DNA from: Limosilactobacillus gorillae
GTDB taxonomy: Bacteria > Pseudomonadota > Alphaproteobacteria > CAAGCB01 > CAG-977
Reading direction: 5' to 3'
Assembly (NCBI GenBank): GCA_963604715.1
Contig: CAVCSV010000008.1
Location: 2,529 to 66,528 of the forward strand
Length of the DNA: 64,000 bases
Program-made: the position numbers and the translations under genes
The notes under the pieces: generated by a model
Databases searched by the model: none
What the model was told of the DNA's origin: nothing
The model's input: the letters and a program-made list of their open reading frames with translations, nothing else
Shown: in pieces, positions 33,290 to 57,629 of the stretch
How positions within the stretch are numbered: position 1 is the stretch's first letter
How the letters are laid out: each line of letters starts with the position of its first letter

Positions 33290-34339
<1,050 letters not shown>

Positions 34340-34359
34340 TCCGATTTAGGGATTAAGTC

Positions 34360-35226
34360 ATGGCAAAACAGAGCGGCACGACATCGCTGTATCAGCTGAA
34401 ATCGAAACTGCAGCGTTTCGGTTTGCTGGCTTTGGTCATGGCGGCGTTCGGGCTGATGCTGTTGGGCAAAGCCGATACGATTCTGGTCGAAAAAGGGCGT
34501 ATTTTGTTCAACGACATTACGACGCCCGTTTTGGCTTTGCTGTCGAAGCCTGCCGAAACCGTATCGGGCTTTATACAGAACATCCATGAATTGGTTTCCA
34601 TCCGTCAGGAAAACAACCGTTTGCGCGACGAAAATCAGCGGTTGAATCTGATAAAGCTGGAAACGGAAAGACTGCGCAAGGAAAACGCGTATCTGAGCGG
34701 TTTGCTGAACTATGTCCCGCCCCCCGAAGCCGTGTCGATTTCGTCGCGCGTCATTGCCGACACGGGAAATTCGTTTGCGCAGTCTTTGATTGCTTTTGTC
34801 GGGGCGAAACAGGAAATCGAAAAAGGCAACGTCGTTTTGACGGGCGACGGGCTGGTCGGTCGGATTGCGTCCGTCGGCGTAAACGCGGCGCGGATTTTGT
34901 TGATTACGGACATCAACTCGCGCGTGCCCGTGAAAATCGAACCGATTGACGTTCCCGCGATTTTGGCGGGGGACAATACCGAATATCCGCAGCTGATTTC
35001 TTTCCCGAACAATGTTCGCGTGTCCGTCGGCGACAGAATTGCAACGTCGGGGCTGGCAGGGGTGTATCCCGCGGGATTGCCCGTCGGAACGGTGATTTCC
35101 GTCAACGACGGCGTGGTCAAAGTCCGTCCTTTTGTCAACAGAAACCACTTGGAAGTGGTGCGTATCGTCGATTATGGTCTGTCGGGACTGATTGCGGATC
35201 CGAAATGCGAAACAGTTTTGCCGTAA
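34360..35226 (+). CDS. mreC: Rod shape-determining protein MreC
   Basis: N-terminal TM helix, coiled coil and beta domains, in the mreBCD order. Confidence 0.85.
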   Translation: MAKQSGTTSLYQLKSKLQRFGLLALVMAAFGLMLLGKADTILVEKGRILFNDITTPVLALLSKPAETVSGFIQNIHELVSIRQENNRLRDENQRLNLIKLETERLRKENAYLSGLLNYVPPPEAVSISSRVIADTGNSFAQSLIAFVGAKQEIEKGNVVLTGDGLVGRIASVGVNAARILLITDINSRVPVKIEPIDVPAILAGDNTEYPQLISFPNNVRVSVGDRIATSGLAGVYPAGLPVGTVISVNDGVVKVRPFVNRNHLEVVRIVDYGLSGLIADPKCETVLP

Positions 35227-35750
35227 AACAAACTTTTGTGCAATCGCTGGTCGAACGGTTTTGGGTTGAATCGCCGAAATTGCTGACTGCGCTGATTTTG
35301 CTGTTTTCCGTCGCGCCGACGTATTTGCCGGGGTATTCGTCCGTCCGTCCCGCCATGACGCTGATTCCGATTTTTTATTGGGCGATATACAGGTCGTACA
35401 GTTTTTCGATTATTTGCGCGTTTTTGTTTGGGCTGGCGCTGGATTTGCTGGACAGTACGCCGCTGGGGGTCAACACGTTTGTTTTTACCGTGTTTTATTT
35501 GCTTGCCGATTCCCAGCGCCGTTTTTTGAACGGAAAGCCGTTCGGTTTTGTTTGGTTCGGATTCGCGGTGCTGTCGCTGGCGGCTTATTTTTTGAAGTGG
35601 CTGTTCGTTTCGATTAACTATGCGGCGTTTACGCCCGTCGGCATTGCGCTGTTAAGCTGGTTTTTGCTGACAATCGTTTATCCGCTGCTGGTTTTTCCGT
35701 GCGCAAAACTGCATCTGTACCTGTTGGACAAAGAAAATGATAACGCGTGA
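35205..35750 (+). CDS. mreD: Rod shape-determining protein MreD
   Basis: A small polytopic membrane protein sitting between mreC and mrdA. Confidence 0.75.
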   Translation: MRNSFAVKQTFVQSLVERFWVESPKLLTALILLFSVAPTYLPGYSSVRPAMTLIPIFYWAIYRSYSFSIICAFLFGLALDLLDSTPLGVNTFVFTVFYLLADSQRRFLNGKPFGFVWFGFAVLSLAAYFLKWLFVSINYAAFTPVGIALLSWFLLTIVYPLLVFPCAKLHLYLLDKENDNA

Positions 35751-37617
35751 CGGTGACAAAGGCAAAATGTTGACGCGCCGCGCCGCTATGGTTGCGGGCG
35801 GAGAGCTGTTTTTGTCGTCGATTCTGCTGGGGCGGATGTACTGGCTGCAGGTTTTGGAATCCGACCGTTACAAAACGCTGGCGGAGGAAAACCGCATCAG
35901 CACGCGCCTGCTTGCCCCGCCGCGCGGGCTGATTTACGACAGATTCGGCAAAGTGCTGGCGGACAACAACCAAAACTTCCGCGCTTTGGTGATTTCCGAA
36001 CAGACCGAGGGCAATTTGAACGCGACATTGGAAGCGCTGAACAAAATCCTGCCGCTGACCGACAACGAAATTCAGCGCATCCGCCGCGAAGTTCGCCGTT
36101 CCCGCGACTTTACGCCCGTAACCGTCCGCGAAAACCTGTCTTGGGAAGATATGGCGGCGATTCAGCTGAACGCGCCCGATTTGCCGGGGATTATCATTGA
36201 CGAGGGACTGAGCCGCTATTACCCCTGTCATGAGGAAAACGCCCATGTTTTGGGCTATGTCGGCGTCGTGTCCGAACAGGAAATCGCAAACAGCAGCAAT
36301 CCTTTGTGGAAACTGCCGGGATTCCGCATCGGCAAAGCGGGCATTGAACTGCAGTACAACACCGAACTGTGCGGCAAAGAGGGTGCCCAGCGTGTCGAAG
36401 TCAACGCCGTCGGGCGCGTGATTCGCGAAATCGAACGCGACGAAGGGGCGGCGGGAAAATCGCTGCCTTTGACCATTGACGAGCGGCTGCAGGAAATCGC
36501 TTACAAAAAAATGAAAGGTCACAGCGGCAGCGCGGTTTTGCTGGATATTTACACGGGTGAAGTGCTGATGATGGCGTCGACGCCCGCTTTCGACCCGAAT
36601 GCGTTCAACCGCGGCTTGACGCCCGAAGAATGGAAAGCCCTGTCGAACAACGACAAAAAACCGTTGATGAACAAAGCGTTGGGCGGGCTGTATTCCCCCG
36701 GTTCGACGTTTAAAATGGTGGTGGCGCTGGCGGCGCTGGAAGCGGGCGTCATCCGTCCCGATACAAAAATCGACTGCCGCGGCTATACCATGATGGGCAA
36801 CCACCGCTTTCATTGTTGGAAAGGCGGCGGACACGGCGAATTGAATCTGAAAGAAGCGCTGATGCATTCATGCGACATTTACTTTTATGAAATCGCGCGG
36901 CGCACGGGCATCGACAAGATTGCGGCAATGGCGAAAAAATTCGGATTCGGGTCTTTGACGGGCATCAATCTGCCGGGGGAAAAAGCAGGACTGATGCCAA
37001 CCCGCCATTGGAAAGAAATGGTGCTGGGCGAACAATGGCTGCAGGGCGACACCTACAACGTCGGCATCGGTCAGGGGGCGATTTTGGCGACGCCCTTGCA
37101 GCTGGCGGTCATGGTCGCGGCTTTGGCGAACGACGGCATTAAAGTCAAACCGACGCTGATTGTTCCCGAAAACAGAAATCCGAACGCGACGCAGGGCGAG
37201 TATCTGAATATCTCGAAAAACTATTTGCAGCTGATGCGCGACGGAATGTTCGAAGTCGTCAATAATCCCAAAGGTACGGCGAAATGGGCGCATGTCGACG
37301 TTGACGGCAAGCTGATTGCGGGCAAAACGGGCACAACGCAGGTCAAGCGCATTTCCATGAAAGAACGCGAACAGGGATTGAAACGGCAGGAAGATTTGCC
37401 GTGGGAGGACAGAAACCACGCATTGTTCGTAACATTCGGACCGACGGACAATCCGCGCTATGCTTTGGCGGTTGTGATTGAACACGGCGGCGGCGGTTCG
37501 ACGTCCGCGGCGCCGATTGCGCGCGACATTATGCGCGCCGCGCTGAAGCTTGACCCCGCCGCGAAACCGCCCGTCAAACCGCATAAAACCATCATTTCTT
37601 CGGGAGGAAACAAATGA
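35737..37617 (+). CDS. mrdA: Penicillin-binding protein 2 (peptidoglycan D,D-transpeptidase MrdA)
   Basis: Transpeptidase motifs (STFK, SCD, KTGT). The start may instead be the downstream MLTRR. Confidence 0.9.
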   Translation: MITRDGDKGKMLTRRAAMVAGGELFLSSILLGRMYWLQVLESDRYKTLAEENRISTRLLAPPRGLIYDRFGKVLADNNQNFRALVISEQTEGNLNATLEALNKILPLTDNEIQRIRREVRRSRDFTPVTVRENLSWEDMAAIQLNAPDLPGIIIDEGLSRYYPCHEENAHVLGYVGVVSEQEIANSSNPLWKLPGFRIGKAGIELQYNTELCGKEGAQRVEVNAVGRVIREIERDEGAAGKSLPLTIDERLQEIAYKKMKGHSGSAVLLDIYTGEVLMMASTPAFDPNAFNRGLTPEEWKALSNNDKKPLMNKALGGLYSPGSTFKMVVALAALEAGVIRPDTKIDCRGYTMMGNHRFHCWKGGGHGELNLKEALMHSCDIYFYEIARRTGIDKIAAMAKKFGFGSLTGINLPGEKAGLMPTRHWKEMVLGEQWLQGDTYNVGIGQGAILATPLQLAVMVAALANDGIKVKPTLIVPENRNPNATQGEYLNISKNYLQLMRDGMFEVVNNPKGTAKWAHVDVDGKLIAGKTGTTQVKRISMKEREQGLKRQEDLPWEDRNHALFVTFGPTDNPRYALAVVIEHGGGGSTSAAPIARDIMRAALKLDPAAKPPVKPHKTIISSGGNK

Positions 37618-38765
37618 AATTGTCCTCTTTTCGCTTCAATCGGACGGAAATGACGCTGAAAGACCGCTTTTTGCGGCTCAGCTGGTTTTATGTTTTTCTG
37701 ATTTGCATGGTTGCCGCAACGGGATTGGTGGTTTTGTACGCCGCCGCGAACGGCAGTTGGAATCCGTGGGCGTCCAAACAGTTTGTCCGCTTTTGTTTGG
37801 GATTCTGCGTGATGATTGTCGTCGGAATGACGAATTTGCGCTTTTGGCTGAAATACGCCTATGCTTTTTACACCGTCGCCGTGATTATGCTGTTCATCGT
37901 CGAATTTTTCGGGCACGATGCAATGGGGGCGCAGCGGTGGCTGAATCTGGGATTTATCAAAGTTCAGCCGTCCGAATTGATGAAAATCGCGCTGATTTTG
38001 GCACTGTCGCGGTATTTTCACGGCGGGTCTTTGCAGGATGCGCAAAGCATGTCGTATATTGTCGCGCCGACTTTGATGGTGCTGCTGCCCGTTGCGCTGG
38101 TGTTGAAACAGCCCGATTTGGGAACGGCGGTTTTAATGGCGTCGGGGGCGGTCGTTTTGTTTTTTCTGGTCGGCGTCCAGATATGGAAATTCGGCGTTGT
38201 GGGCTTTTTGGGGCTGTTGTCGTTGCCGATTGGCTGGCGGTTCCTGCACGATTATCAAAAGGAGCGCGTTTACACGTTCCTTGACCCCGAACGCGACCCG
38301 CTGGGCAAAGGATACCATATTCTGCAATCCAAAATCACGCTCGGTTCGGGCGGTATTTTCGGCAAGGGATTTTTGCAGGGAACGCAAAGCCGCTTAAACT
38401 TTCTGCCCGAAAAGCAGACGGACTTCATCTTTACCGTTTTGGCGGAAGAGTTCGGTTTGGTCGGTTCCGTTTCGCTGCTGATGCTGTACTTGGCTTTGAT
38501 TTTTTACGGATGCCTGATTGCGTTCCGTTCCACCAGCTTTTTCGGGCGGATATTGGCGTTGGGGTTGTCGGCAAACCTGTTTTTGTACGTTTTCATCAAT
38601 ATCGCGATGGTAATGGGACTGCTGCCCGTCGTGGGCGTGCCTTTGCCGATGATTTCATATGGTGGCACGGTGATGCTGACGCTGATGTTTTCGTTCGGAT
38701 TGATTGAGTGCGTCAACGTCAACCGCGACGTCCAAATCGGACGCCGCGGCGCATACGACGATTAG
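37614..38765 (+). CDS. mrdB: Peptidoglycan glycosyltransferase RodA (SEDS family)
   Basis: A 10-TM SEDS protein in the mreBCD-mrdA-rodA order, with an ATGA overlap. Confidence 0.9.
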   Translation: MKLSSFRFNRTEMTLKDRFLRLSWFYVFLICMVAATGLVVLYAAANGSWNPWASKQFVRFCLGFCVMIVVGMTNLRFWLKYAYAFYTVAVIMLFIVEFFGHDAMGAQRWLNLGFIKVQPSELMKIALILALSRYFHGGSLQDAQSMSYIVAPTLMVLLPVALVLKQPDLGTAVLMASGAVVLFFLVGVQIWKFGVVGFLGLLSLPIGWRFLHDYQKERVYTFLDPERDPLGKGYHILQSKITLGSGGIFGKGFLQGTQSRLNFLPEKQTDFIFTVLAEEFGLVGSVSLLMLYLALIFYGCLIAFRSTSFFGRILALGLSANLFLYVFINIAMVMGLLPVVGVPLPMISYGGTVMLTLMFSFGLIECVNVNRDVQIGRRGAYDD

Positions 38766-39548: not shown

Positions 39549-41561
39549 ATGAAACGGCTTTTATCTGTTTTTTGTTTATTTTCGGTGTTGTTTGCCTTTA
39601 AAGCGTCCGCTCAGGCGTCGATTCAGGCGGATTTAATCACGCAAAAGGAAGGTGTTTTGCCCGCGGGCGAATTGGTCGCCGCTTTGAAACTGACAATGCC
39701 CGACGGCTGGCACGTTTACTGGAAAAACGCGGGGGATGCGGGCGAGCCGACGGAAACAAAACTGACTTTGCCCGACGGTTTTTCCGAAACGGGACGGCTG
39801 TGGACGGTGCCCGAAAAATTTTCCGTCGGCACGCTGACGGAATACGGCTATCACGGACAGGCGTATTTTCCGATTAAAATCAAAGCCCCCGAACAACTGA
39901 AAACGGGCGAGATTCTGCAAATCAAAGCCAAAGCGACATGGCTGGCGTGCAAAGACGTGTGCGTTCCGATGCAGGCGGAGCCGACGGCGTTTGTCACAGC
40001 GGGAATCGAGGGGGATGAAAACGCGGAATTGACGGCAGTTTTGAATGAATTGGCACAGCCGCAGCAAGAAGGCGTTTTTTACGAAACGAACGGCGGGCTG
40101 GTTTTGCGTCTGCCCAAACCCGCCAAAGCCGAAAACGCCTATTTTTTCCCCGACAGCGGCAAAGTGCTGATGCACAACGCGCTCCAAACGCTGAAAACCA
40201 AAGACGGCGACGCGTTTTTGTTTTTGACAAAAGCCTTGCCCGAAGATTTCGAAAGTCCCGAAAAGTTGACGGGAACGGTTGTTTTTTATAACGGCTTGGG
40301 GGACAAAACGGCGGCGTTCGAGGTCGCCGCCGAACGCACGGCGGAACCTTTGCCCGTGTTTGAAACTTTTGTCTGGCGCGAATTTTTAAGCGCGCTGTTG
40401 TTCGCTTTGCTGGGCGGATTTTTGCTGAATCTGATGCCGTGCGTGTTCCCCGTTTTATCGCTGAAAGCGTTCAGTCTATTGTCCGCAAAAACGGACAAAG
40501 CCCAGATGAAACGCGAATCTCTGCTGTATACGGCGGGGGTTCTGGCGTCTTTTGCCGTCATCGGCGCGTTTTTGGTCGCTTTGCGCAAAGCGGGGGCGGA
40601 GCTGGGCTGGGGATTCCAGCTGCAATATCCGCCGTTCGTGCTGTTTTTAAGCCTGTTTATGTTCTTTTTAGGCTTGCTGTTTTCCGACATGGTTACCGTG
40701 GGCGAAGCTTTGTCGGGATTCGGCATGAATTTCAAGCACGGATTGGGACACTTCGGGACGGGAATTTTGGCGGTGTTCGTCGCCAGTCCCTGCGCCGCGC
40801 CGTTTATGGGGGTGGCTTTGGGATACGGGCTGATGAACCCCGCGCCCGTGACCATGGCGGTTTTGCTGATGATGGGGGTCGGATTGGCGGTGCCGTTCCT
40901 TGTTTTGGGATTTTTCCCGCAAACCGCGAAGTTTTTGCCCAAACCGGGGGCGTGGCTAATGCTGTTCCGCCGTTTTCTGGCTTTTCCGCTGTTCGGCGCG
41001 GCGGCGTGGCTGTTGTGGGTGCTGGCGGCGCAGGAGGGGTCCGTGGCGCTGGCGTGGGCGCTGACCTGCCTGATTTCGGTTGCTTTCGCGACATGGCTGT
41101 GCGGTGTGGCGCAAAGCGCGCCGAAATTCAAGCTGTGGGCGGGCTTTGCGGTCGCTTTGACGGTTTTGGGCATCGGATACGCTTTGACGGCTGTTTCGCC
41201 CAAGCGGGAAGCTGCGGCGGACAAAATCGAATGGATGGAATATCGGGCGGACGAGGTTGAAAATTTCCGCAAACAGGGTTTCCCCGTGTTTTTGAAATTT
41301 TCGGCGAAATGGTGTTTGACGTGTTTGGTCAACGACAAAACGACGTTCGCCGCCGCCGATACGGTTGAAGCGTTCAAAGAAAAAGGCGTCGCGGCGTTTT
41401 TCGGGGATTGGACGACGCGCGACGACAACATCACAGCGGCAATCGAAAGTTTCGGGCGCGGCGGTATTCCGCTGTATGTGTATTATGCGCCGAACGCCGA
41501 AAAGCCCGTGATTTTGCCGCAAATCGTAACGCCGTCCGAAATTCGGGCTTTATTGCGGTAG
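39549..41561 (+). CDS. dsbD: Thiol:disulfide interchange protein DsbD (protein-disulfide reductase)
   Basis: Three modules: an alpha domain (WLACKDVCVP), a CcdA-like TM core (LMPCVFPV) and a C-terminal thioredoxin domain (AKWCLTC). The start is taken at MKRLL. Confidence 0.85.
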   Translation: MKRLLSVFCLFSVLFAFKASAQASIQADLITQKEGVLPAGELVAALKLTMPDGWHVYWKNAGDAGEPTETKLTLPDGFSETGRLWTVPEKFSVGTLTEYGYHGQAYFPIKIKAPEQLKTGEILQIKAKATWLACKDVCVPMQAEPTAFVTAGIEGDENAELTAVLNELAQPQQEGVFYETNGGLVLRLPKPAKAENAYFFPDSGKVLMHNALQTLKTKDGDAFLFLTKALPEDFESPEKLTGTVVFYNGLGDKTAAFEVAAERTAEPLPVFETFVWREFLSALLFALLGGFLLNLMPCVFPVLSLKAFSLLSAKTDKAQMKRESLLYTAGVLASFAVIGAFLVALRKAGAELGWGFQLQYPPFVLFLSLFMFFLGLLFSDMVTVGEALSGFGMNFKHGLGHFGTGILAVFVASPCAAPFMGVALGYGLMNPAPVTMAVLLMMGVGLAVPFLVLGFFPQTAKFLPKPGAWLMLFRRFLAFPLFGAAAWLLWVLAAQEGSVALAWALTCLISVAFATWLCGVAQSAPKFKLWAGFAVALTVLGIGYALTAVSPKREAAADKIEWMEYRADEVENFRKQGFPVFLKFSAKWCLTCLVNDKTTFAAADTVEAFKEKGVAAFFGDWTTRDDNITAAIESFGRGGIPLYVYYAPNAEKPVILPQIVTPSEIRALLR

Positions 41562-42992
41562 CTTTCCGTCCGATATAGAAACCGTCAAAGTGTGCGCGAA
41601 TCCGTTTTCGGCTGTCGGGATGAAGCGGATTTTGGCGATTCCTGGCTTTTTGGCTTCGAAAACCTGACTCAGCCACGTTTCAGAATCGCGGGTTTCAATC
41701 GACAACGGCGTCAAAACGGGTTTGTAGTCGGTAATCAAGGCGTCGTCCGCGCTTTCCAAAACGATTTTGTAGTCGGTGTTGTCGATGTACTTGTGCGCGC
41801 CTTTCAGCGTCGAGGCGGTTTCGTGCAGCTTTGTGTAAACGATGATTTCGAACACGTCGCCCGTCATGACGGGAATGGCGCTTTCGGGTTTGTCCAGCGT
41901 CAGATGAATCGTCGACGGATTGGCGACGCGGAAATACAGCGCGCGGATGACTTCGTCGCTTTCGGGAAAGGGGGCGGGCGGCGTTTTTCCCGCCAAAGCG
42001 GGATTGGACGGCTGGTCGATGTCGAACGGCGCCCAAGCGGGCATAAAAGGAAAAAACTTTTTGTATTTGCCGTCGAACGCGTCGCGCTTCAGCGGAAACA
42101 GAAACGTTGTTTCGCGCACCATGTCAACGGGCGGCAAAGGCAGCTTTTTGGGATAAATCCTGCCGTTCAAATCGTCTTTGGTCAAAACGTCCGACAGCCA
42201 GAACGGCAGAAAACGCGTCAAGTACGCCGCTTGCAAAGGCGACAGTTTTTTTTGCGCTTTTTTGGCGATTTCCAAAAAACGGACGTTTTCCTTGCGGGGG
42301 GCGGTTTTGCTCAGGTGATTGCGGCCGACATCCGCCAAAATGAACGCCTGAACGTAGTCTTTCTTGTCCAGATAATACTGCGCCAGATTGTAAAAGGCAT
42401 AAGGGTTGTTCAGTAAAACGGCTTGCTTGAAGTATTGTTCCGCTTTTGCTTCGTCGGCTTTTGCGCCGATGCCGAACCGCGTGTACAGTCCAATGGAATT
42501 CAGCGCGTTCAGATGTCCTTTTTCGGCGGCGGCTTTGAAATTTTCGGCGGCGGCTGTGAAGTTGCGCGGGACGCCGATGCCCTCCTGATACAGCAAAGCC
42601 AGACTGTATTTTGCGGCAATGTCGCCGCGCTTGGCGTTGCCGACAAGCGTGTTGACGTACATACTGCCCGAAATCCCCGACAAGTCGGCTTTGTAACGCG
42701 GAACGATGCCCAGTCTGTCCAGCATGTCGGTTTCGCCTTTGTACAGGCGTTCCAGCCAAACGGAATAGGACGGCGCGTCGATTTTCTTTTCTTTGCGCAA
42801 AGCCTTAATCAGCCGCAGCAGGTAAACCGCGCTCGGCTGTTCTTTGGCATGCAGTTTCAGAATGCGTTCGGCTTCGTCGTAATCGCCTGCGACAAAAGCG
42901 TTCGCGCCGTCGTCAAAGGTGTCTTTTTCCGCTTCGGCGGCAGCGGCGGGAAAACAAAACAGCAAAGCCGACAAAAACAGGATTGTTTTCAT
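41550..42992 (-). CDS. Secreted Sel1-repeat protein with a C-terminal domain of unknown function (about 480 aa)
   Basis: Signal peptide MKTILFLSALLFCFPAAAA, followed by Sel1 repeats (LALLYQEGIGVPRN…), then a roughly 200 aa C-terminal region with no recognised family. Confidence 0.7.
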   Translation of the reverse strand: MKTILFLSALLFCFPAAAAEAEKDTFDDGANAFVAGDYDEAERILKLHAKEQPSAVYLLRLIKALRKEKKIDAPSYSVWLERLYKGETDMLDRLGIVPRYKADLSGISGSMYVNTLVGNAKRGDIAAKYSLALLYQEGIGVPRNFTAAAENFKAAAEKGHLNALNSIGLYTRFGIGAKADEAKAEQYFKQAVLLNNPYAFYNLAQYYLDKKDYVQAFILADVGRNHLSKTAPRKENVRFLEIAKKAQKKLSPLQAAYLTRFLPFWLSDVLTKDDLNGRIYPKKLPLPPVDMVRETTFLFPLKRDAFDGKYKKFFPFMPAWAPFDIDQPSNPALAGKTPPAPFPESDEVIRALYFRVANPSTIHLTLDKPESAIPVMTGDVFEIIVYTKLHETASTLKGAHKYIDNTDYKIVLESADDALITDYKPVLTPLSIETRDSETWLSQVFEAKKPGIAKIRFIPTAENGFAHTLTVSISDGKLPQ

Positions 42993-43618
42993 TCGCCCAG
43001 CTTTTTCATCAGCGTTTTTTGTTTTTTGATGATTTTTTGCCACCGCCCCGCCGCAAAAACATTCGGCGCATAATCCATTCTGCCGTTTTTGTTAATCAGC
43101 AGCAACGCCATTTTGGCGTTCAAATCGCCGTTTTTCGCCGCCATTTCATAAAAGCGGACGGCTTTGTGCGTGTCGGCGCGTCCGCCGCGTCCGTTTTCGT
43201 ACCACCCGCCCAGCAGCATTTGCGCTTCGGCGTCGTTTTGCAAAGCGGCGGATTCGGCATAAGCGTAAGCTTTGTCCCAATCGCCTTTTTGCGCGTACAA
43301 AACGGCAAGGGTCGTCTGCGCGGGAACATAGTTGAACAAAGCCGCCTTTTCGTAATACAGAAACGCGCGGCGTTCGTCGGGGGCAACGCCTTTGCCCGCA
43401 TAATACATCGCGCCCAGAATGAACGAAGCTTCGGGATTCGACATCAAATCCTGATTGCGGAACATCCGCAAAGCCGTTTTGTAATCGCCTTGTTCGTAAG
43501 CCGTCAGTCCGCGCGTCATTTCCGGTGCGGGCTGTTTTCGGGCAAAGGTGCAAAATCCCCCTGCGGCAAGGACGAAAACGGCGGCAAAAATCTGCAATTT
43601 TTTCTTCATACGCGCCAT
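42989..43618 (-). CDS. Secreted Sel1-repeat protein (about 209 aa)
   Basis: Signal peptide plus Sel1 repeats (ILGAMYYAGKGVAPD…, LLGGWYENGRGG). It overlaps the downstream Sel1 gene by ATGA. Confidence 0.7.
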   Translation of the reverse strand: MARMKKKLQIFAAVFVLAAGGFCTFARKQPAPEMTRGLTAYEQGDYKTALRMFRNQDLMSNPEASFILGAMYYAGKGVAPDERRAFLYYEKAALFNYVPAQTTLAVLYAQKGDWDKAYAYAESAALQNDAEAQMLLGGWYENGRGGRADTHKAVRFYEMAAKNGDLNAKMALLLINKNGRMDYAPNVFAAGRWQKIIKKQKTLMKKLGE

Positions 43619-43699
43619 ATTAAGCCCTTTCGTCAAAAAAGCCATTGTTTTTTTGCCAAGCGGTGTATAATACCCGCTTTAAAACAAAAGGGGATAAGG

Positions 43700-45037
43700 A
43701 TGTTTCCCGACAGGGCGCAGGTAAAAAGTTTCCGTTTCAAACGCTGTTTCTTTGATGAAACGGCGATGACGGCGCATTTGGTTTACGGTTTCGACGACTT
43801 TGTCGAATTCGATGAAACCGTGTCGTTTTTGAGCGCGCCCGCTTTCAACGAAACACGCCGCGCGGCGGTAAACGCGTGCCTGCGCCTGTTGCACTTGGCG
43901 GCGGGAGTCAGCTATTACAAGGCGTACATTCCCGAACGAATCGGCGTTGAATCGACGACGCTTTCAAAAAAGGAAGCGGATTTTTTCAATCTGTTCTACC
44001 AATCGGGATTGGGCGAGTTTTCCTATCGCAACCGCGTTGAACCGCACATTGATTTTCCCTTTGGCGATGTCACACCCGAACAGGCGGAAATCCGTTTGAA
44101 AAAACGGACAATCGTTCCCGTCGGCGGCGGCAAGGATTCGATTGTGACTTTGGAAACGCTGAAATCGGCGGGAATTTCACCCGTGCTGTTTTCCGTCGGC
44201 TTGCCGCGTCCGATAAAGGATACGATTGCGGTTTCGGGACAGGAATCGATTCAAGTCGTCCGCAAAATTTCGCCGAATTTGAAAGCGCTGAACGACGCGG
44301 GCGCGCTGAACGGGCATGTTCCCGTGACGGGGATTATCGCTTTTATTCTGATGCTGGCGGCGGTGATTTACGATTTTTCGGACGTCACGATGTCGAACGA
44401 ACGGTCGGCGAACGTCGGCAACACGACGCTGAACGGACGCACGGTCAATCATCAATGGAGCAAATCGCTGGAATTCGAGCGCGCTTTTGCCGACTTGACG
44501 GCGGACATTCTGCCCGATTTCCGTTATTTTTCGTTTTTGCGCCCGCTGTCCGAACTGTCGATTGCCCGCAAATTTGCAGAAATCAAAAAATACGATGCGG
44601 TTTTCACCAGCTGCAACAAAGCGTTCAGATTGGACGAATCCAAACGGCTTGACCGCTGGTGCGGGGATTGCGACAAATGCCGCTTTGTGTTTTTGGCTCT
44701 TGCCCCGTTTATGGGCAAAGAGCGCGTTACCGCCGTTTTTGCCCGCAACCCTTTGAACGAACCCGAACAAACCGAGGGTTTCCGCCAGCTGTTGGGGCTG
44801 AGCGCGTTCAAGCCGTTTGAATGTGTCGGGGAAATCGACGAATCCGCTTGGGCGTTTTTGCAGCTGTGCCGCCGCCCCGAATGGGAATCGGACGCCGTTG
44901 TCGCCGCTTTGAAGCCGTTAGTGATGGAAAAATACGCCGCGCGGGAAAAGGAAATGAAAGACAGGATTTTTTCCTTTTCATCCGCGCACTTGATTCCGAA
45001 AGGATACGAAAATGCTGTTGGAAAGCTTGAAGAATAG
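43700..45037 (+). CDS. PP-loop ATPase-like protein; a candidate UDP-MurNAc-L-Ala-L-Glu epimerase (MurL-like)
   Basis: PP-loop motif VPVGGGKDSIV and a C-terminal Cys cluster (WCGDCDKC). Its 3' end overlaps the start of a standalone MurD homologue. The track ORF starting at 42983 is over-extended. Confidence 0.55.
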   Translation: MFPDRAQVKSFRFKRCFFDETAMTAHLVYGFDDFVEFDETVSFLSAPAFNETRRAAVNACLRLLHLAAGVSYYKAYIPERIGVESTTLSKKEADFFNLFYQSGLGEFSYRNRVEPHIDFPFGDVTPEQAEIRLKKRTIVPVGGGKDSIVTLETLKSAGISPVLFSVGLPRPIKDTIAVSGQESIQVVRKISPNLKALNDAGALNGHVPVTGIIAFILMLAAVIYDFSDVTMSNERSANVGNTTLNGRTVNHQWSKSLEFERAFADLTADILPDFRYFSFLRPLSELSIARKFAEIKKYDAVFTSCNKAFRLDESKRLDRWCGDCDKCRFVFLALAPFMGKERVTAVFARNPLNEPEQTEGFRQLLGLSAFKPFECVGEIDESAWAFLQLCRRPEWESDAVVAALKPLVMEKYAAREKEMKDRIFSFSSAHLIPKGYENAVGKLEE

Positions 45038-46280
45038 TCCCGTTACCGTGTGGGGCGCGGGGCGCGAGGGCAATGCCTGCGCCGAATTTTTGCAAAAGCG
45101 CGGTTGCGCGGTCAAAATCGTTGAAGACCCGCTGACCGAACCGTTGCAGGGCGTTGTCGTCAAATCCCCCGGAATCAGCCGCTACCGTCCCGAAATCGCG
45201 GCGGCGAAGCAGGCGGGCGCGATCTTTACCACCGCGACGAATCTGTTTATCCAAGCCGCGCGGTTAAGTCCGAAAAAGCCTTTGCTGATTGGTGTGACGG
45301 GGACGAAAGGCAAATCGACGACCTCGTCCCTTATTGCGCATTTGCTGCGCGAACAGGGCAAAAAGGTTGCTTTGTGCGGCAATATCGGCGTTCCGTCGAT
45401 TTCGTATGCCGACAAAATCGACGACTTCGACATTTTTGTTTTGGAAGTGTCCAGCTATCAGGCGGCTGATTTGGAACAGGGATTCGACATCAGCGTCGTT
45501 TTGAACCTGTATCCCGAACATATCGACTGGCACGGAACGCACGAACGCTATTATCAGGACAAGCTGAACATCGTGCGTGTTCGTCCCGACGGCGCGCCCG
45601 TGATTTTGAACGCGAACGACCCGCGGCTGTCGCGTTATCTGCCCGCCGCTCAAAACGCCGTTTATTTCGACGCGCCCGATGCGATTCATATCGAAAACGG
45701 GCTGTTTTACGACGGCATCGAAAAGCTGTTTGCAACGTCCGCCGTCAACTTGAAGGGCGAACACAATCTGAAGAACGTGTGCGCGGCTTTGACGGCTGTC
45801 AAGCTGGCGGGCGGCGACCTGTTTTTGTGTGAAGACGCGCTGAAAACGTTTCACGCTTTGCCGCACCGTTTGCAGGAACTGCCCGTCAAGCACGGCTTGC
45901 GTTTCGTGGACGACAGCATAGCGACCACGCCCGAATCGACTCTGGCGGCGCTGAAGTCGTTTCCCGAAACGAAAATCGTTTTGATTGCGGGCGGGTATGA
46001 CAGAAAGCAAGATTATACAGAGCTTTCCGACTTTGTCGTGCGCAAAGGCATTCAAGTTGTGACTTTGCCGCCGACGGGCGAACGTCTGGCGCGCATGATT
46101 CGGGAAAAAGGCGGTTTTGCCGTCGAAGCGACCGATATGACAAACGCGGTCGAAACCGCCGCCAAAGCTGCCAACGCGGGCGATTTGGTGCTGTTGTCGC
46201 CCGCCGCGCCCAGCTACGGGGTTTACAAGAATTTCGAGGAACGGGGCGACATTTTCGCCCAATGCGTTACCGCGCTTTAA
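45012..46280 (+). CDS. MurD-family Mur ligase outside any dcw cluster; a candidate MurD2 (UDP-MurNAc-L-Ala:L-Glu ligase)
   Basis: Mur ligase motifs (GVTGTKGKSTT and a C-terminal domain). It is not flanked by mraY or ftsW and is translationally coupled to the upstream PP-loop gene. Confidence 0.6.
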   Translation: MLLESLKNSPVTVWGAGREGNACAEFLQKRGCAVKIVEDPLTEPLQGVVVKSPGISRYRPEIAAAKQAGAIFTTATNLFIQAARLSPKKPLLIGVTGTKGKSTTSSLIAHLLREQGKKVALCGNIGVPSISYADKIDDFDIFVLEVSSYQAADLEQGFDISVVLNLYPEHIDWHGTHERYYQDKLNIVRVRPDGAPVILNANDPRLSRYLPAAQNAVYFDAPDAIHIENGLFYDGIEKLFATSAVNLKGEHNLKNVCAALTAVKLAGGDLFLCEDALKTFHALPHRLQELPVKHGLRFVDDSIATTPESTLAALKSFPETKIVLIAGGYDRKQDYTELSDFVVRKGIQVVTLPPTGERLARMIREKGGFAVEATDMTNAVETAAKAANAGDLVLLSPAAPSYGVYKNFEERGDIFAQCVTAL

Positions 46281-46858
46281 CGCCGCGCCCTTAACGCGGT
46301 TTGGATTGTGCCGTCGTCCAGATAGTCCAATTCGCCGCCGACGGGGATGCCCTGCGCCAATGACGAGATTTTCAGCGGCAAATCCTTGAACCGTTCGGCG
46401 ATGTAATGCGCGGTCGTTTGCCCGTCGACGGTGGCGGGCAAAGCCAAAATCAGCTCTGCCGTGTTGTTTTCGCGAATCCGCCGTTCAAGGGCGGGCAGGC
46501 GCAGTTCTTCGGGACCCGTGCCGTCAATCGCGGACAACAGTCCGCCCAAAACGTGATAACGCCCCTTGAACGCGCCCGAACGGTCGATAGCCCACAAATC
46601 CGCAACATCCTGCACGACGCAAATCGTCGAATCGTCGCGGCGCGGGTCGGCGCAGACGGCGCACGGGCTTTGCGAATCCAGATTGCCGCAAATCGGGCAA
46701 ACCTGCACAGTGTCGATGACGTCTTGAATCGCTTTTTCCAGCGGAATCAGCTGCGATTCGCGCCGTTTTATCAAATACAGAACCGTGCGGCGCGCGGAAC
46801 GCGTCCCGAACCCCGGCAAACGGGAAAACAGACGAATCAGCGTTTCGATTTCGGACAT
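46277..46858 (-). CDS. recR: Recombination protein RecR
   Basis: Zinc finger CPICGNLDSQSPCAVC and a Toprim domain. Confidence 0.95.
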   Translation of the reverse strand: MSEIETLIRLFSRLPGFGTRSARRTVLYLIKRRESQLIPLEKAIQDVIDTVQVCPICGNLDSQSPCAVCADPRRDDSTICVVQDVADLWAIDRSGAFKGRYHVLGGLLSAIDGTGPEELRLPALERRIRENNTAELILALPATVDGQTTAHYIAERFKDLPLKISSLAQGIPVGGELDYLDDGTIQTALRARR

Positions 46859-46862
46859 TTTA

Positions 46863-47174
46863 TCAGAACGGCAGTTTAAAGGGCAGATTCAAGCCGCTTT
46901 TCATCGCATCGGTTTTCTGCGCGACCAGTTCGTCGGCTTTTTGCCGCGCGTCGTTGATTGCGACGACCAGCAGGTCTTCCAACACTTCGGTATCCTGCGC
47001 GACGGACGGGTCGATGCTGACTTTGCGCACCTTGCCGTCGCCCGTCATGACGACCTGCACCATGCCCGCGCCCGCCGCGCCTGTGACCTCGGCGGATTCA
47101 AGCTCTTTTTGCATATCGGTCATTTTCTGCTGCATTTGCTGCGCTTTTTTCATAATGTCGGCAAAGTTTTTCAT
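46863..47174 (-). CDS. ybaB: Nucleoid-associated protein YbaB/EbfC
   Basis: A 103 aa product of the YbaB family in the dnaX-ybaB-recR order. Confidence 0.9.
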   Translation of the reverse strand: MKNFADIMKKAQQMQQKMTDMQKELESAEVTGAAGAGMVQVVMTGDGKVRKVSIDPSVAQDTEVLEDLLVVAINDARQKADELVAQKTDAMKSGLNLPFKLPF

Positions 47175-48856: not shown

Positions 48857-48884
48857 GGAATCCCCGCGGGAAAATCTTTAAAGG

Positions 48885-48970
48885 AAATCGGACGCGACCC
48901 GCCGCAAAATCGTTACGGCTGCTTTCTTCCGAACCTGACCGGGTTGGCGACCGCCGCGTCCGCGCCGACT
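48885..48970 (-). ncRNA. ffs: Signal recognition particle RNA (4.5S RNA, ffs)
   Basis: The minus strand reads …GGACGCGGCGGUCGCCAACCCGGUCAGGUUCGGAAGAAAGCAGCCGUAACGAUUUUGCGGCGGGUCGCGUCC…. This carries the conserved domain-IV motif (GGUCAGGUxCGGAAGnAAGCAGCC) and a closing helix GGACGCG/CGCGUCC. It sits in the conserved position upstream of dnaX. The ends are approximate. Confidence 0.7.
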
Positions 48971-49143
48971 TCCGACATCTATTTACCCGAATTTCGTTCA
49001 AAAACGCAAGCGTTACTTTTTTATTAACGAAAAAAAGAGGATGCAAAGCCTTATTTTCAGCCGTTTTTTCAACAATGCTTGACAAACGGGGAAAAGTTGG
49101 TCTTTTCTGTTTTCCAATTTGTTTCTGGTAAGGAGAAAATTTG

Positions 49144-52536: not shown

Positions 52537-53706
52537 ATGAAAGCGGGCGGACGCTTTTTATTGAAATTGCTGGTTCTGCTCGCCATTTTGCTGACGGGCG
52601 GAAGCGTCTTCAGTTATTATTCGCTGCTTTACGAACAAAACGACGCGGTTGAACCGACAATCGTTTTGGTGGAAAAAGGCGACAGTCTGGGGCGCATTGC
52701 CGTTCGTTTGAAAAAGGACGGCTTGCTGAAAAGCGTTGCCGTTTTCAAAGTCGCCGCCCGTTTGTCGGGCAAATCGACTCAGCTGAAAACGGGCGAATAC
52801 CGCATCCCCGCGCATGCCAGCGCGAAAGAAATTCTGGATGTTTTGACGGGCGGGCAGACTTTGGTGCGCCGCGTCACGATTCCCGAAGGCAAAACCAGCC
52901 GCCAGATTTACGATATGCTGTTGGAAACGGCGGGGCTGTTCGGCGATTTGCCCGAACCGCCCGCAAACGGGTCTTTGCTGCCTGAAACATATGTATTCGG
53001 CTACGGCGTGCCGCGCAAAGTCATCGTCGACAGAATGCGCGAATCCATGCAAAAAACAATCGATGATTTGTGGGAATACCGCGCCGACGATTTGCCTTAT
53101 AAAACCAAGGCGGAAGCGTTGGTCATGGCGTCGATTGTGGAAAAGGAAACATCCGTTCCCGCCGAACGTCCGCGGATTGCCGCCGTTTTTGTGAACCGTT
53201 TGCGCAAAGGCATGCGTCTGCAAACCGACCCGACGGTGATTTACGCCGTAACGGACGGCACGATGGAACTGAACCGCCGCTTGACGCACAAGGATTTAAG
53301 AACGCCGCATCCGTTCAACACTTATGTCAATCGCGGACTGCCCCCCGCGCCGATTTGCAATCCGGGGCGCGATTCGATTTTGGCGGTCTTGCAGCCGTTG
53401 AAAACCAACGAGCTTTATTTTGTCGCTGACGGAACGGGCGGTCACGTCTTTTCGCAGACATTCGACCAGCATCGGCGCAACATCGCGGCATGGAAAAAGG
53501 CGCGTGTTCAAAAACGGCTGGCGCGGCGCAAAGCCCGCTTGGCGGCGATAAAAGCCAAAGAAAAGGCGGCGGCAAAGAAAAACAAAAAAACAGCCGCGCC
53601 GCAGCCCGCCCCCGTTGTTCACGAAGAAATCGAGGAACCGCTTGACCCCGAAGACGTTTCGCTGGACATTGTCGATTCGATTCCCGTGGAACAGCCGAAA
53701 CAATAG
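52537..53706 (+). CDS. mltG: Endolytic murein transglycosylase MltG (YceG-like) with a roughly 60 aa charged C-terminal extension
   Basis: A TM anchor, the YceG domain, and a K/A/E-rich tail. It is translationally coupled to fabF. Confidence 0.85.
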   Translation: MKAGGRFLLKLLVLLAILLTGGSVFSYYSLLYEQNDAVEPTIVLVEKGDSLGRIAVRLKKDGLLKSVAVFKVAARLSGKSTQLKTGEYRIPAHASAKEILDVLTGGQTLVRRVTIPEGKTSRQIYDMLLETAGLFGDLPEPPANGSLLPETYVFGYGVPRKVIVDRMRESMQKTIDDLWEYRADDLPYKTKAEALVMASIVEKETSVPAERPRIAAVFVNRLRKGMRLQTDPTVIYAVTDGTMELNRRLTHKDLRTPHPFNTYVNRGLPPAPICNPGRDSILAVLQPLKTNELYFVADGTGGHVFSQTFDQHRRNIAAWKKARVQKRLARRKARLAAIKAKEKAAAKKNKKTAAPQPAPVVHEEIEEPLDPEDVSLDIVDSIPVEQPKQ

Positions 53707-53715
53707 GAGGGCGGT

Positions 53716-54432
53716 ATGCCTTTTCTGCTTTTGTTGTTGTTGATTTTTTCGACCCCCGCTGCTGCCGATTTTGAATCGGGGCGCAAGGCGTTTGCGCAAG
53801 GAAATTACGAACTTGCTTTTACCGAATGGCAAGCCGCGGCGGAACAGGGCGACGCGTCGGCTCAGCGCAACGTCGGGCATTTGTACCGCTGGGGAAAAGG
53901 CGTGCCGCAGGATTTGACCCAAGCCGCCTATTGGTACTTTACGGCGGCGAAAAACGGATCGGCGGGCGCGCAATACAATTTGGGCGTGATGTACCTGCGC
54001 GGCGAGGGCGTGCCCCGCAACGAAGAGGAAGGAACGCTTTGGCTGGAACGGTCTGCGGAACAGGGCTATGCGAAAGCCAAAAAACGGCTGCAGGATTTGA
54101 AAGCCGATTTGGACGATTTCCCCGCTGACGAAGAAATTTTGTCGCCCGTCAAACAGCCCGTAAAACCCCGCAAGGAAACAAAACGCAAAGAACCGCCCCT
54201 TTATGCGCATTTGGCGTCTTATTACACGCAGGAAACGCTGGAGAAGGGGTGGAAAGAGCTGAAGCAGACCTATCCCGAACTGAAAACCTTTAAAACGGTT
54301 GAAACGCAGGTTTCCCTGCCGGAAAAGGGAAAATACATCCGCCTGTATATCAAAGGAAAACCCGCGGACGTCAAACGCGTCTGCGGGCTGTTGAACGATA
54401 AAAAACAGTACTGCTTAATCAGCTATCCGTAG
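53716..54432 (+). CDS. Sel1-repeat protein fused to a C-terminal SPOR domain
   Basis: A signal peptide, Sel1 repeats (NVGHLYRWGKGVPQD, NLGVMYLRGEGVPRN), and a C-terminal SPOR-like domain (YAHLASYYTQETLEKGWKEL…YIRLYIKGKPADVKRVCG). Confidence 0.65.
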   Translation: MPFLLLLLLIFSTPAAADFESGRKAFAQGNYELAFTEWQAAAEQGDASAQRNVGHLYRWGKGVPQDLTQAAYWYFTAAKNGSAGAQYNLGVMYLRGEGVPRNEEEGTLWLERSAEQGYAKAKKRLQDLKADLDDFPADEEILSPVKQPVKPRKETKRKEPPLYAHLASYYTQETLEKGWKELKQTYPELKTFKTVETQVSLPEKGKYIRLYIKGKPADVKRVCGLLNDKKQYCLISYP

Positions 54433-55587: not shown

Positions 55588-57036
55588 TCATATCTCCAGA
55601 ACGCCGCGTGAAAACAAAAACACGGCAATCAGAGCAGCGGCAATCAACAGCCCCGCCGCCCACGGTTCGCGCCCTTTGAACACGGGTTCGTTCGGGGCGT
55701 TTTCACGTCTTGCCCAAACGAAAACGGGTATGCCGCAGGCAAGGAACAACACCGCCATTAACAGATATTGCAAGCCCGCCGCGTAAATCAGCCATACGGC
55801 ATAAGCCGACCCGAACATTGACGACAACAGCGCTTCGGAACGCGGAGAAACGGCGGTTTTCGGGTATTCACCGTCTTCGCACATTTTCCACAAAAATCCC
55901 ATGCTGACCAGATAGGCGGGCAGAACCATCACGCCCGTAATCGACAGCATGGTGCTCCACGCGTCACGGGAAAAATACACCATGAAAATCGCCGCCTGCA
56001 TCAGCGCGCTGCTGACCCACAGGGATACGGACGGCGAACCGTTTTTGTTTTCACGGGCAAAGACGCGCGGAAAAGCGCCGTTTTTCGCGGCGGCGAACGG
56101 AATTTCAGCCGCAATCATCGTCCATGCCAGCCAGCTGGCAAGAACCGCAATCAGCAGCCCGCCGTTCATCAGCCGCGCGCCCCATTTGCCGACGGCGGCT
56201 TCCAAAACGCCCGCGGTGGACGGATTGGGCAGGGCGGCAAGTTCGGTTTGGCTCATAAAGCCGTACGGCAGAACGGACAGCAGGACGTAAATTGTCAAAC
56301 AGCCCAAAAATCCGATGAAAGTCGCTTTGCCGACGTCGTTTTTGTTTTGCGCGCGATCGGACAGAACGACCGCCCCCTCAATCCCGATGAAAGCCCAAAG
56401 CGTTACCAGCATGGTGCTTTTGATTTGTTCGGGAACGGAACCCAGTCCTTTGCCGTGCGAAGCCAGTTTGCCCCAGAAATCAGCGTCGAACGTGTCCGCT
56501 TTGAACATGAAAGCCGTTATCAGAATGAAAATCAGCAAAGGCACGATATTGCACACCGTGCCGATGATGTTGACAAAGCTTGCCCTTCGCACGCCGCGCA
56601 GAACAACGGCGTTGAACCCCCAAATCAGCAATGAACCGCCGATAATGGAATAAAGCCCGTTGCCGCCCGCGAAATACGGCGGGAAAAAGTAATTCAGCGC
56701 GTCCATGGTGATGACGGCATAGCCGACGTTTCCGAAAATCTGACACAGCCAGTACCCCCACCCGATTGTGAAGCCCGCGAACGACCCGAAGCCCGCGCGG
56801 GCGTACATATATACCCCCGCGGTCAAATCGGATCGCGCGTCGGACAGGATTCTGAACGAATTGGCAAGGAAATACATGCCGACGCCCGTAATCAGCCACG
56901 CCAGCAGCACCGCGCCGACGCTCGCCCCCGCCGCCATGTTTTGGGGCAGGCTGTAAATCCCGCCCCCGACCATGGAGCTGACCACGACGCACGACAGCGC
57001 CGCCAATCCCAGCTTGTTGCTTTGTTGTTCAGCCAT
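55588..57036 (-). CDS. APC-family basic amino acid antiporter (ArcD/YdgI-like); a candidate arginine:agmatine antiporter
   Basis: Strong resemblance to ArcD/YdgI (GIYSLPQNMAAGAS, WGYWLC, IKSTMLVTLW, RAQNKNDVGKATF) with 12–13 TM helices. It lies immediately downstream of a pyruvoyl decarboxylase gene. Confidence 0.8.
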   Translation of the reverse strand: MAEQQSNKLGLAALSCVVVSSMVGGGIYSLPQNMAAGASVGAVLLAWLITGVGMYFLANSFRILSDARSDLTAGVYMYARAGFGSFAGFTIGWGYWLCQIFGNVGYAVITMDALNYFFPPYFAGGNGLYSIIGGSLLIWGFNAVVLRGVRRASFVNIIGTVCNIVPLLIFILITAFMFKADTFDADFWGKLASHGKGLGSVPEQIKSTMLVTLWAFIGIEGAVVLSDRAQNKNDVGKATFIGFLGCLTIYVLLSVLPYGFMSQTELAALPNPSTAGVLEAAVGKWGARLMNGGLLIAVLASWLAWTMIAAEIPFAAAKNGAFPRVFARENKNGSPSVSLWVSSALMQAAIFMVYFSRDAWSTMLSITGVMVLPAYLVSMGFLWKMCEDGEYPKTAVSPRSEALLSSMFGSAYAVWLIYAAGLQYLLMAVLFLACGIPVFVWARRENAPNEPVFKGREPWAAGLLIAAALIAVFLFSRGVLEI

Positions 57037-57047
57037 TGTCCGTCCCT

Positions 57048-57629
57048 TTACAGCTTGACGGGATCGGCTGTTTCAAAGTTCAAAAAGCCCAAGCACGTCA
57101 AGCAATAGCCGAATTGCTGCGTGATGTTGATATAGTTGTGAAACAGCTGGAATTCGCTGTGTTTTTCGACGCCGCGGATTTCCAGTTCGTGATTCAAAGA
57201 CTTGTTCAGCCACATTTCGGCGTGCCCTTTGGCAATATCGTCGTCAATGTAGGTCGGGAAGTATTCGACATATTCCGCCGCCCAGCCGCCGATAAGCTTG
57301 CCAGTTTTGTCCTTGCCCCAGCAAACGCCGACGCCCGTCGCGATTGCGCGGTGGTCGTTGCGGTTCGCGCCGTTGCCCGCCATGATGACTTCCAACACCG
57401 CGCCGTGTTTGAAGAATTTGGACACTTTGTCGACGGGAACGATGTTGCCTTTCAATTCGGGCGGCAGAACGGACGTGTACGGAATGACGTTGAAGTCTTG
57501 AATTTTCGCCTGCGCCAAAGCCGAGTCGTAACAGAACGTTTCAAACGGCTGCGGCGGAATACCGTCGTCCGATTGCCCCGCGCCGCCCGTATGAAAAGCC
57601 AATGTCGGATAACGAGTGCCTACTAACAT
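57048..57629 (-). CDS. Pyruvoyl-dependent arginine decarboxylase family protein (PvlArgDC/AaxB-like)
   Basis: The 193 aa product has a self-processing-site region NVIPYTS|[12 protein letters not shown] that aligns with the archaeal and chlamydial PvlArgDC NLIRISS|IMPPEAEIVP. Confidence 0.7.

Follow-up and report, generated by a model that had tools for sequence, protein, structure and literature searches.

A pair of overlapping genes on contig CAVCSV010000008.1 (assembly GCA_963604715.1, placed by GTDB in the Alphaproteobacteria) very probably forms a murL-murD2 operon, which would supply D-glutamate for peptidoglycan by an alternative route that needs no racemase. The two open reading frames (ORFs) lie on the forward strand and together span positions 43700-46280 of the 64-kb stretch analysed here, referred to below as the window. 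The upstream gene encodes a homologue of the epimerase MurL and the downstream gene a MurD-type ligase with L-glutamate-type specificity residues. An earlier note, made from the sequence alone, had read the pair as a MurL epimerase coupled to a MurD2 L-glutamate ligase, with the ligase gene overlapping the 3' end of its neighbour. Both ORFs were recovered where that note had placed them, and family models, specificity residues, gene pairing and a phylogenetic tree agree with its core reading. Support comes from the homology of both proteins, the MurD2 specificity residues, both predicted folds, the linkage of the genes and the existence of natural fusions.

In the proposed pathway, MurD2 would use ATP to activate the L-alanine carboxylate of UDP-N-acetylmuramoyl-L-alanine (UDP-MurNAc-L-Ala) as an acyl phosphate and would then couple L-glutamate, not D-glutamate. 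MurL, a PP-loop enzyme that resembles QueC but has an additional N-terminal domain, would spend one ATP with release of AMP to convert the α-carboxylate of the terminal L-glutamate to an adenylate, acidifying the α-proton. The glutamate centre would then be inverted by MurL and the adenylate hydrolysed. Both reactions, including the consumption of one ATP, the formation of AMP and the one-way conversion from L to D, have been shown only for the enzymes of Xanthomonas oryzae, Micromonospora and Salinispora (PMC8788868; PMC5808125). Adenylation of the glutamate α-carboxylate is the proposal of MurL's discoverers (PMC8788868; PMC5808125), and we infer the same adenylate mechanism for the homologue described here.

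Specificity residues and phylogeny of the ligase

The ligase belongs to the MurD family, as the earlier note had said. It matches the Pfam domains Mur_ligase_M and Mur_ligase_C, with only a faint match to the N-terminal domain, and scores 318.5 bits against the murD model TIGR01087, above the curated cut-off of 211.95. TIGR01087 does not separate MurD from MurD2. The AlphaFold2 model of the ligase (predicted local distance difference test, pLDDT, 93.6) reaches template modelling (TM) scores of 0.86-0.88 to Escherichia coli MurD, and equivalents of the E. coli catalytic residues K115, N138, E157, H183 and K198 are kept in the alignment.

Four pocket differences have been described between E. 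coli MurD and X. oryzae MurD2, namely D182 to E197, K348 to R358, A414 to P433 and L416 to F435 (PMC8788868). An E197D/R358K double mutant of X. oryzae MurD2 switches to a D-glutamate ligase, and E. coli MurD gains acceptance of L-glutamate through K319T (PMC8788868). At the positions of E. coli D182, K319, K348, A414 and L416, the window's ligase carries E/I/R/P/Y, with the canonical pocket residues D182, K319, K348 and A414 all replaced.

This signature recurs in ligases encoded next to murL. A survey with a single genome for each GTDB species detected a relative of MurL in at least 593 genomes, of which the best 80 were kept. Among their MurL-linked ligases that cover the positions (two sequences are truncated), including those of X. 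hortorum and Stenotrophomonas maltophilia, the five residues are E/I/R/P/(F or Y), with two exceptions: locus L079 has Asp at the first position, and locus L026, from the Deltaproteobacteria metagenome-assembled genome (MAG) OFTM245, has E/L/R/A/G. Tyr and Phe alternate across these ligases at the last position, where the window has Tyr402 and X. oryzae Phe435. The comparison set of canonical MurDs comprised five enzymes with solved structures, from E. coli, Pseudomonas aeruginosa, Acinetobacter baumannii, Thermotoga maritima and Streptococcus agalactiae, which read (D or T)/K/(K or R)/A/(L, F or W). At the Lys319 position, 75 of the 76 MurL-linked ligases that cover the site have Ile, and all five canonical enzymes have Lys. 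The exact E/I/R/P/Y combination was also found in 118 of the 120 closest database homologues of the ligase.

In a neighbour-joining tree (419 columns, with E. coli MurC, MurE and MurF as outgroup), the 76 MurL-linked ligases were all split off together from the five canonical MurDs and the outgroup, with moderate bootstrap support (67%, 300 replicates). The earlier note had named clustering with canonical MurD as an outcome that would speak against its proposal; the window's ligase instead groups with the MurL-linked enzymes. Judged by its sequence, the ligase is of the MurD2 type and not a canonical MurD, and use of L-glutamate is predicted for it.

With X. oryzae MurD2 the ligase shares the three-domain Mur fold, Glu and Arg at the positions defined by mutagenesis, Ile where E. 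coli MurD has Lys319, a Pro-Ser-aromatic motif close to the C terminus and a gene directly after murL. It differs in length (422 amino acids against about 469, with about 27 N-terminal residues deleted), in having Tyr for Phe435 and in the 26-nt overlap of its gene with murL. With canonical MurD (E. coli b0088; TIGR01087) it has in common the fold and the ATP-binding and catalytic residues, and the same acceptor substrate is expected, but D182, K319, K348 and A414 have become E, I, R and P, and the gene lies outside a dcw cluster and is coupled to an epimerase gene.

Family membership, fold and likely chemistry of MurL

The check by hidden Markov model that the earlier note had suggested for the upstream protein returned an end-to-end match to a MurL model. 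This model, NF041275 ('MurL_Xanthmoales', UDP-N-acetyl-alpha-D-muramoyl-L-alanyl-L-glutamate epimerase), is the sole NCBIfam match of the protein (E 1.7e-139), aligning residues 4-438 with profile positions 3-441 of 447. Precomputed Pfam matches to MurL_N (PF26299) and MurL_epimerase_C (PF26298) exist for an identical protein (E ≤1e-5) and for all 120 homologues listed; the local Pfam scan was empty because the copy used predates both families. Conservation was assessed by aligning 80 MurL homologues drawn from GTDB genomes, among them those of Xanthomonas, Stenotrophomonas, Lysobacter and Rhodanobacter. In total, 51 positions are invariant over the 80 homologues, and all 51 are present in the window's protein. 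By these sequence comparisons the upstream protein is a MurL homologue.

Its likeness to Xanthomonadales MurL (41-45% identity) extends to the same length, the same two Pfam domains, the position of the gene directly upstream of a ligase gene and the invariant motifs GGGKDS, NGH, NERSA, NHQxSK, LRPxSE, SCN, WCxxCxKC and KPFECVGE. The window's protein differs in coming from an uncultured gut alphaproteobacterium and in its lower model score (465 bits). Both the PP-loop VGGGKDS and the C-terminal Cys cluster that the earlier note had pointed out are present. Within the PP-loop, G142 to D146 are invariant in the 80 homologues and S147 is at least 95% conserved. The cysteines comprise C305, C321, C324 and C327, together with C375, and all five are invariant. 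In the KPFECVGE motif, K371, P372, F373, E374, C375, V376 and G377 are likewise invariant, and E378 is at least 95% conserved.

An AlphaFold2 model of MurL built from 57 sequences is of high confidence (mean pLDDT 94.4; predicted TM-score, pTM, 0.94). The best Foldseek matches in the PDB were QatC, a QueC-like protein (9y02_B, E 2.3e-5), and QueC (2pg3, E 6.8e-4, TM 0.60 on the target), while TtuA matched less well; each of these proteins is a PP-loop ATP pyrophosphatase. A PDB sequence search with MurL gave no meaningful match, and no solved structure of MurL or MurD2 was found. Membership of the QueC family was considered at the sequence level and rejected, since hhalign aligned the MurL profile with E. 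coli QueC over only 34 columns around the PP-loop (E 0.016; VPVGGGKDS against VVFSGGQDS) and there was no Pfam QueC match. MurL is a distant structural relative of QueC that stands outside the QueC family. The likeness is at the level of fold only, and assignment of the PP-loop protein to an unrelated family, which the earlier note had held would count against its reading, was not borne out.

MurL resembles QueC and QatC in its core fold, in the matching position of its PP-loop and in a C-terminal segment rich in Cys. It differs in an extra N-terminal domain of about 125 residues, a C-terminal helical extension, and its substrate and reaction. QueC carries a Cys4 zinc site, and by analogy with the QueC-like fold C305, C321, C324 and C327 are a probable structural zinc site in MurL. 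C375 may, more speculatively, be a candidate for the catalytic acid/base, given its conservation. Carboxylate activation with release of AMP by QueC and QatC provides a precedent for the proposed adenylation by MurL, and a PP-loop ATP pyrophosphatase fold fits the AMP-forming carboxylate activation in the published biochemistry.

Linkage of the two genes and competing explanations

The two genes travel together. A MurD-type ligase gene follows murL on the same strand at 77 of 77 surveyed loci that extend far enough, the other three ending at a contig edge. Across these loci the genes overlap by up to 22 nt or are separated by up to a few hundred nucleotides, and in the closest gut relatives there is an overlap or a very short gap. 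In the window, the 26-nt overlap suggests a single operon, with possible translational coupling.

Fusions of the two proteins also occur. Among the 150 best MurL-family representatives in a library of 1.84 billion proteins, 13 are single polypeptides of about 800-914 amino acids containing both MurL and MurD2. The order is MurL-MurD2 in 12 (P0244, P0247, P0265, P0267, P0268, P0310, P0345, P0350, P0354, P0355, P0373 and P0387) and MurD2-MurL in one (P0368), and most carry the same ligase signature as the MurL-linked ligases. Some may be gene-calling artefacts, although the repeated occurrence of such proteins favours real fusions and a functional link between the two partners. Two reviews of the pathway (PMC8788868; PMC5808125) do not mention such fusions.

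Several observations weigh against reading the pair as murL-murD2. The score of 465 bits falls below the equivalog cut-off of NF041275 (700 bits), so that orthology to MurL rests on context and residues. In a calibration, the MurL of X. hortorum scored 828 bits, that of the alphaproteobacterium Emcibacter 456 and that of an actinobacterial Solirubrobacteraceae member 490, which indicates that the cut-off isolates Xanthomonadales and that the window's protein scores like other members from outside that order. The moderate bootstrap value of the tree was obtained with just five canonical sequences, and the margin in ligase identity is modest (37-38% to Xanthomonas and Stenotrophomonas MurD2, 28-33% to canonical MurDs). 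In addition, the N-terminal UDP-binding domain of the gut-clade ligases (416-437 amino acids in the window and in loci L002, L005 and L012) is about 27 residues shorter than in E. coli MurD and Xanthomonas and Stenotrophomonas MurD2. The deletion falls at about residues 38-47 of the window's ligase, where the AlphaFold2 model is still confident.

An ordinary D-glutamate MurD encoded outside the dcw cluster, beside an unrelated PP-loop enzyme of the QueC or tRNA-thiolation type, would account for the TIGR01087 score above cut-off, the NCBI name D-glutamate ligase given to homologues, the nearest solved folds (QatC, QueC and TtuA) and the name QueC that JGI gives to one homologue. This explanation is nevertheless very improbable, as both residues that determine D-glutamate use are of the L-glutamate type and Lys319 is replaced by Ile, while the neighbour has no Pfam QueC match, aligns with E. 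coli QueC at the PP-loop only and matches the MurL model from end to end. The pairing at every informative locus and the fusion proteins also speak against it. It is barely credible that the PP-loop protein is instead a QatC-like component of anti-phage defence, an idea that draws on QatC of QatABCD being the best Foldseek match. The TM-score to QatC is just 0.41-0.43 at 16% identity, the constant partner is a Mur ligase, and the pair is flanked by Sel1 and DsbD genes at one end and by recR at the other, with no qatA-, qatB- or qatD-like genes nearby. PADLOC gave no match for MurL, the ligase or either of the two Sel1 neighbours, and the defence-system reading was rejected.

It is also unlikely that MurD2 and MurL are functional but redundant or auxiliary, in a genome that holds murI or a D-amino-acid transaminase as well and perhaps a canonical murD. 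When the 64-kb window was searched by tblastn with MurI and 14 dcw proteins of E. coli, the only matches were the ligase itself and PBP2/RodA paralogues (35.8-38.8 kb), in keeping with the description of the ligase gene as far from any dcw cluster, which holds within the window. That these 64 kb contain neither murI nor a D-amino-acid transaminase gene nor a second murD is of little weight for the genome as a whole, which leaves room for redundancy. Against it, taxa that carry MurD2 and MurL have been reported without genes for D-glutamate formation (PMC8788868), and the ligase matches a housekeeping MurD in size and in catalytic residues and is highly conserved within the gut clade, with E/I/R/P/Y shared by nearly all of its closest homologues. 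The earlier note had counted the absence of a second murD towards refutation, a point that does not stand: a single murD-like gene would not argue against a murL-murD2 pair, because the MurD2 gene of the published system had itself been annotated as MurD (PMC8788868).

Genomic surroundings, host range and meaning of the locus

The features of the locus and its surroundings are collected in the table below. The long ORF that contains murL opens at 42983. The ATG at 43700 is taken as the real start because it lies just past the divergent Sel1-repeat gene (end 43645), is preceded by AAGGGGA and fits homologues that are conserved within the first 20 residues, from residue 9 on. In an identical contig from a metagenome (run SRR13434659), independent gene calling chose the same start. 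A TATAAT hexamer upstream is perfect, stands without a properly spaced -35 element and is a possible -10 box of murL. A promoter and terminator consensus scan of 43300-46900 gave no more sites than shuffled sequence, with none 5' of murL, and did not report the TATAAT. At the other end of the pair, the murD2 stop overlaps the stop of the convergent recR by 4 nt.

Features of the murL-murD2 locus and of the remaining window
Feature	Position	Strand	Basis or remark
murL	43700-45037	+	445 aa; NF041275; Pfam MurL_N and MurL_epimerase_C on identical protein; 41-45% identity to Xanthomonadales MurL
PP-loop-like ATP-binding motif VGGGKDS (residues 141-147)	44120-44140	+	Homologue alignment, QueC alignment, fold
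Four invariant Cys: C305 (in SCN), C321/C324/C327 (in WCxxCxKC)	44612-44680	+	80/80 homologues
KPFECVGE motif (residues 371-378) with C375	44810-44833	+	80/80 homologues
murD2 (MurD-fold ligase with L-Glu-type specificity residues)	45012-46280	+	422 aa; Pfam, TIGR01087, AlphaFold2
Glu169 (E. coli MurD Asp182; X. oryzae MurD2 Glu197), stereospecificity determinant	45516-45518	+	Alignments; mutagenesis (PMC8788868)
Ile303 (E. coli MurD Lys319)	45918-45920	+	Alignments
Arg331 (E. coli MurD Lys348; X. oryzae MurD2 Arg358), stereospecificity determinant	46002-46004	+	Alignments; mutagenesis (PMC8788868)
Pro400-Ser401-Tyr402 (E. coli Ala414-Ser415-Leu416; X. oryzae MurD2 Pro433/Phe435)	46209-46217	+	Alignments
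murL/murD2 overlap, 26 nt	45012-45037	+	Sequence
TATAAT hexamer, possible -10 box	43666-43671	+	Read by eye; 28 nt 5' of murL start
Shine-Dalgarno-like AAGGGGA before murL ATG	43688-43694	+	Sequence
Shine-Dalgarno AAGGA for murD2	45000-45004	+	Inside murL 3' end, 7 nt before ligase ATG
mreB-mreC-mreD-PBP2(mrdA)-rodA, complete cell-elongation cluster	33299-38765	+	About 5 kb upstream of murL
Sel1-repeat proteins, three	41550-43043; 42989-43645; 53716-54432	-; -; +	First two directly upstream of murL, divergent
Bacterial small signal recognition particle (SRP) RNA	48879-48974	-	Rfam RF00169, 61 bits; directly upstream of minus-strand dnaX-ybaB-recR
YceG/MltG gene	~52561-53706	+	
PAS-GGDEF (diguanylate cyclase-type) protein, 769 aa	13426-15735	+	

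Beyond the pair itself, gene order is poorly conserved. The dsbD, Sel1, recR and dnaX neighbours and the proximity of the mre cluster are common only to the three closest relatives, and the nearness of mreBCD-PBP2-rodA to murL is therefore probably coincidental. Elsewhere in the window, an amino-acid permease gene (55588-57036, minus strand) adjoins a gene for a pyruvoyl-dependent arginine decarboxylase (PvlArgDC; 57048-57629, minus strand), with an OprB-type porin gene nearby. No tRNA genes were found in the whole 64-kb window. Exact-match look-ups with the window's other proteins yielded only short Logan contigs, again of run SRR13434659.

The nearest species genome in the survey is a human-gut MAG, 'Alphaproteobacteria bacterium HGM16787' (whole-genome shotgun accession CAAGCY01), with a MurL 91% and a ligase 94% identical to those of the window. 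After it come uncultured Alphaproteobacteria, for which the isolate labels indicate horse faeces, rumen and rabbit samples as sources. A further locus, L009, was found on a 10.9-kb contig (CAVDQP010000029.1, labelled Holdemanella biformis) in a Firmicutes bin that carries an alphaproteobacterial-type murL-murD2 pair. Its MurL and ligase are 50% and 44% identical to those of the window, the tree places it with the gut alphaproteobacterial ligases, and the contig is probably a binning contaminant.

MurD2 and MurL are known from Alphaproteobacteria (Devosia, Pelagibacterium and Parvularcula), several Gammaproteobacteria and rare actinobacteria (2021 review, PMC8788868), and an earlier review mentioned orthologues of low similarity from cyanobacteria, a fungus and an amoeba (PMC5808125). 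The suggestion that the locus extends the known range of the pathway consequently fails at the level of class, where three genera were already listed. What is new is the lineage: in the literature searched, no mention was found of gut-associated uncultured Alphaproteobacteria in connection with this pathway, which has been characterised biochemically before and for which curated models exist. The locus is of value for its occurrence in gut commensals, for the annotation gap that it exposes and for the incidental fusion proteins, as confirmation and not as discovery.

A broader proposal is evenly balanced in our judgement, namely that a gut alphaproteobacterial clade from human, horse, ruminant and rabbit samples relies solely on MurD2 and MurL by means of a shortened 'mini' MurD2, and that the pathway is widespread beyond the 'relatively few genera' in which it has been recognised. 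A wide spread is suggested by the recurrent fusions and by the size of the family, which has at least 1,199 representatives at 50% identity (E ≤1e-30) in addition to the GTDB species genomes found in the survey. Annotation may have hidden it. Among the homologues, NCBI names the partner ligases D-glutamate ligases, and MurL outside Xanthomonadales appears as 'endonuclease domain-containing protein' or as hypothetical. With a MurL model tuned to Xanthomonadales and no model that separates MurD2 from MurD, metabolic reconstructions would wrongly report a missing source of D-glutamate and a ligase specific for it.

The MurD2/MurL route has been proposed as a narrow-spectrum antibiotic target, on the grounds that the organisms using it do so without glutamate racemase. 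Its true host range bears on which organisms such drugs would hit, and the locus described here places the route in commensal gut Alphaproteobacteria, beyond the Xanthomonas and Stenotrophomonas pathogens.

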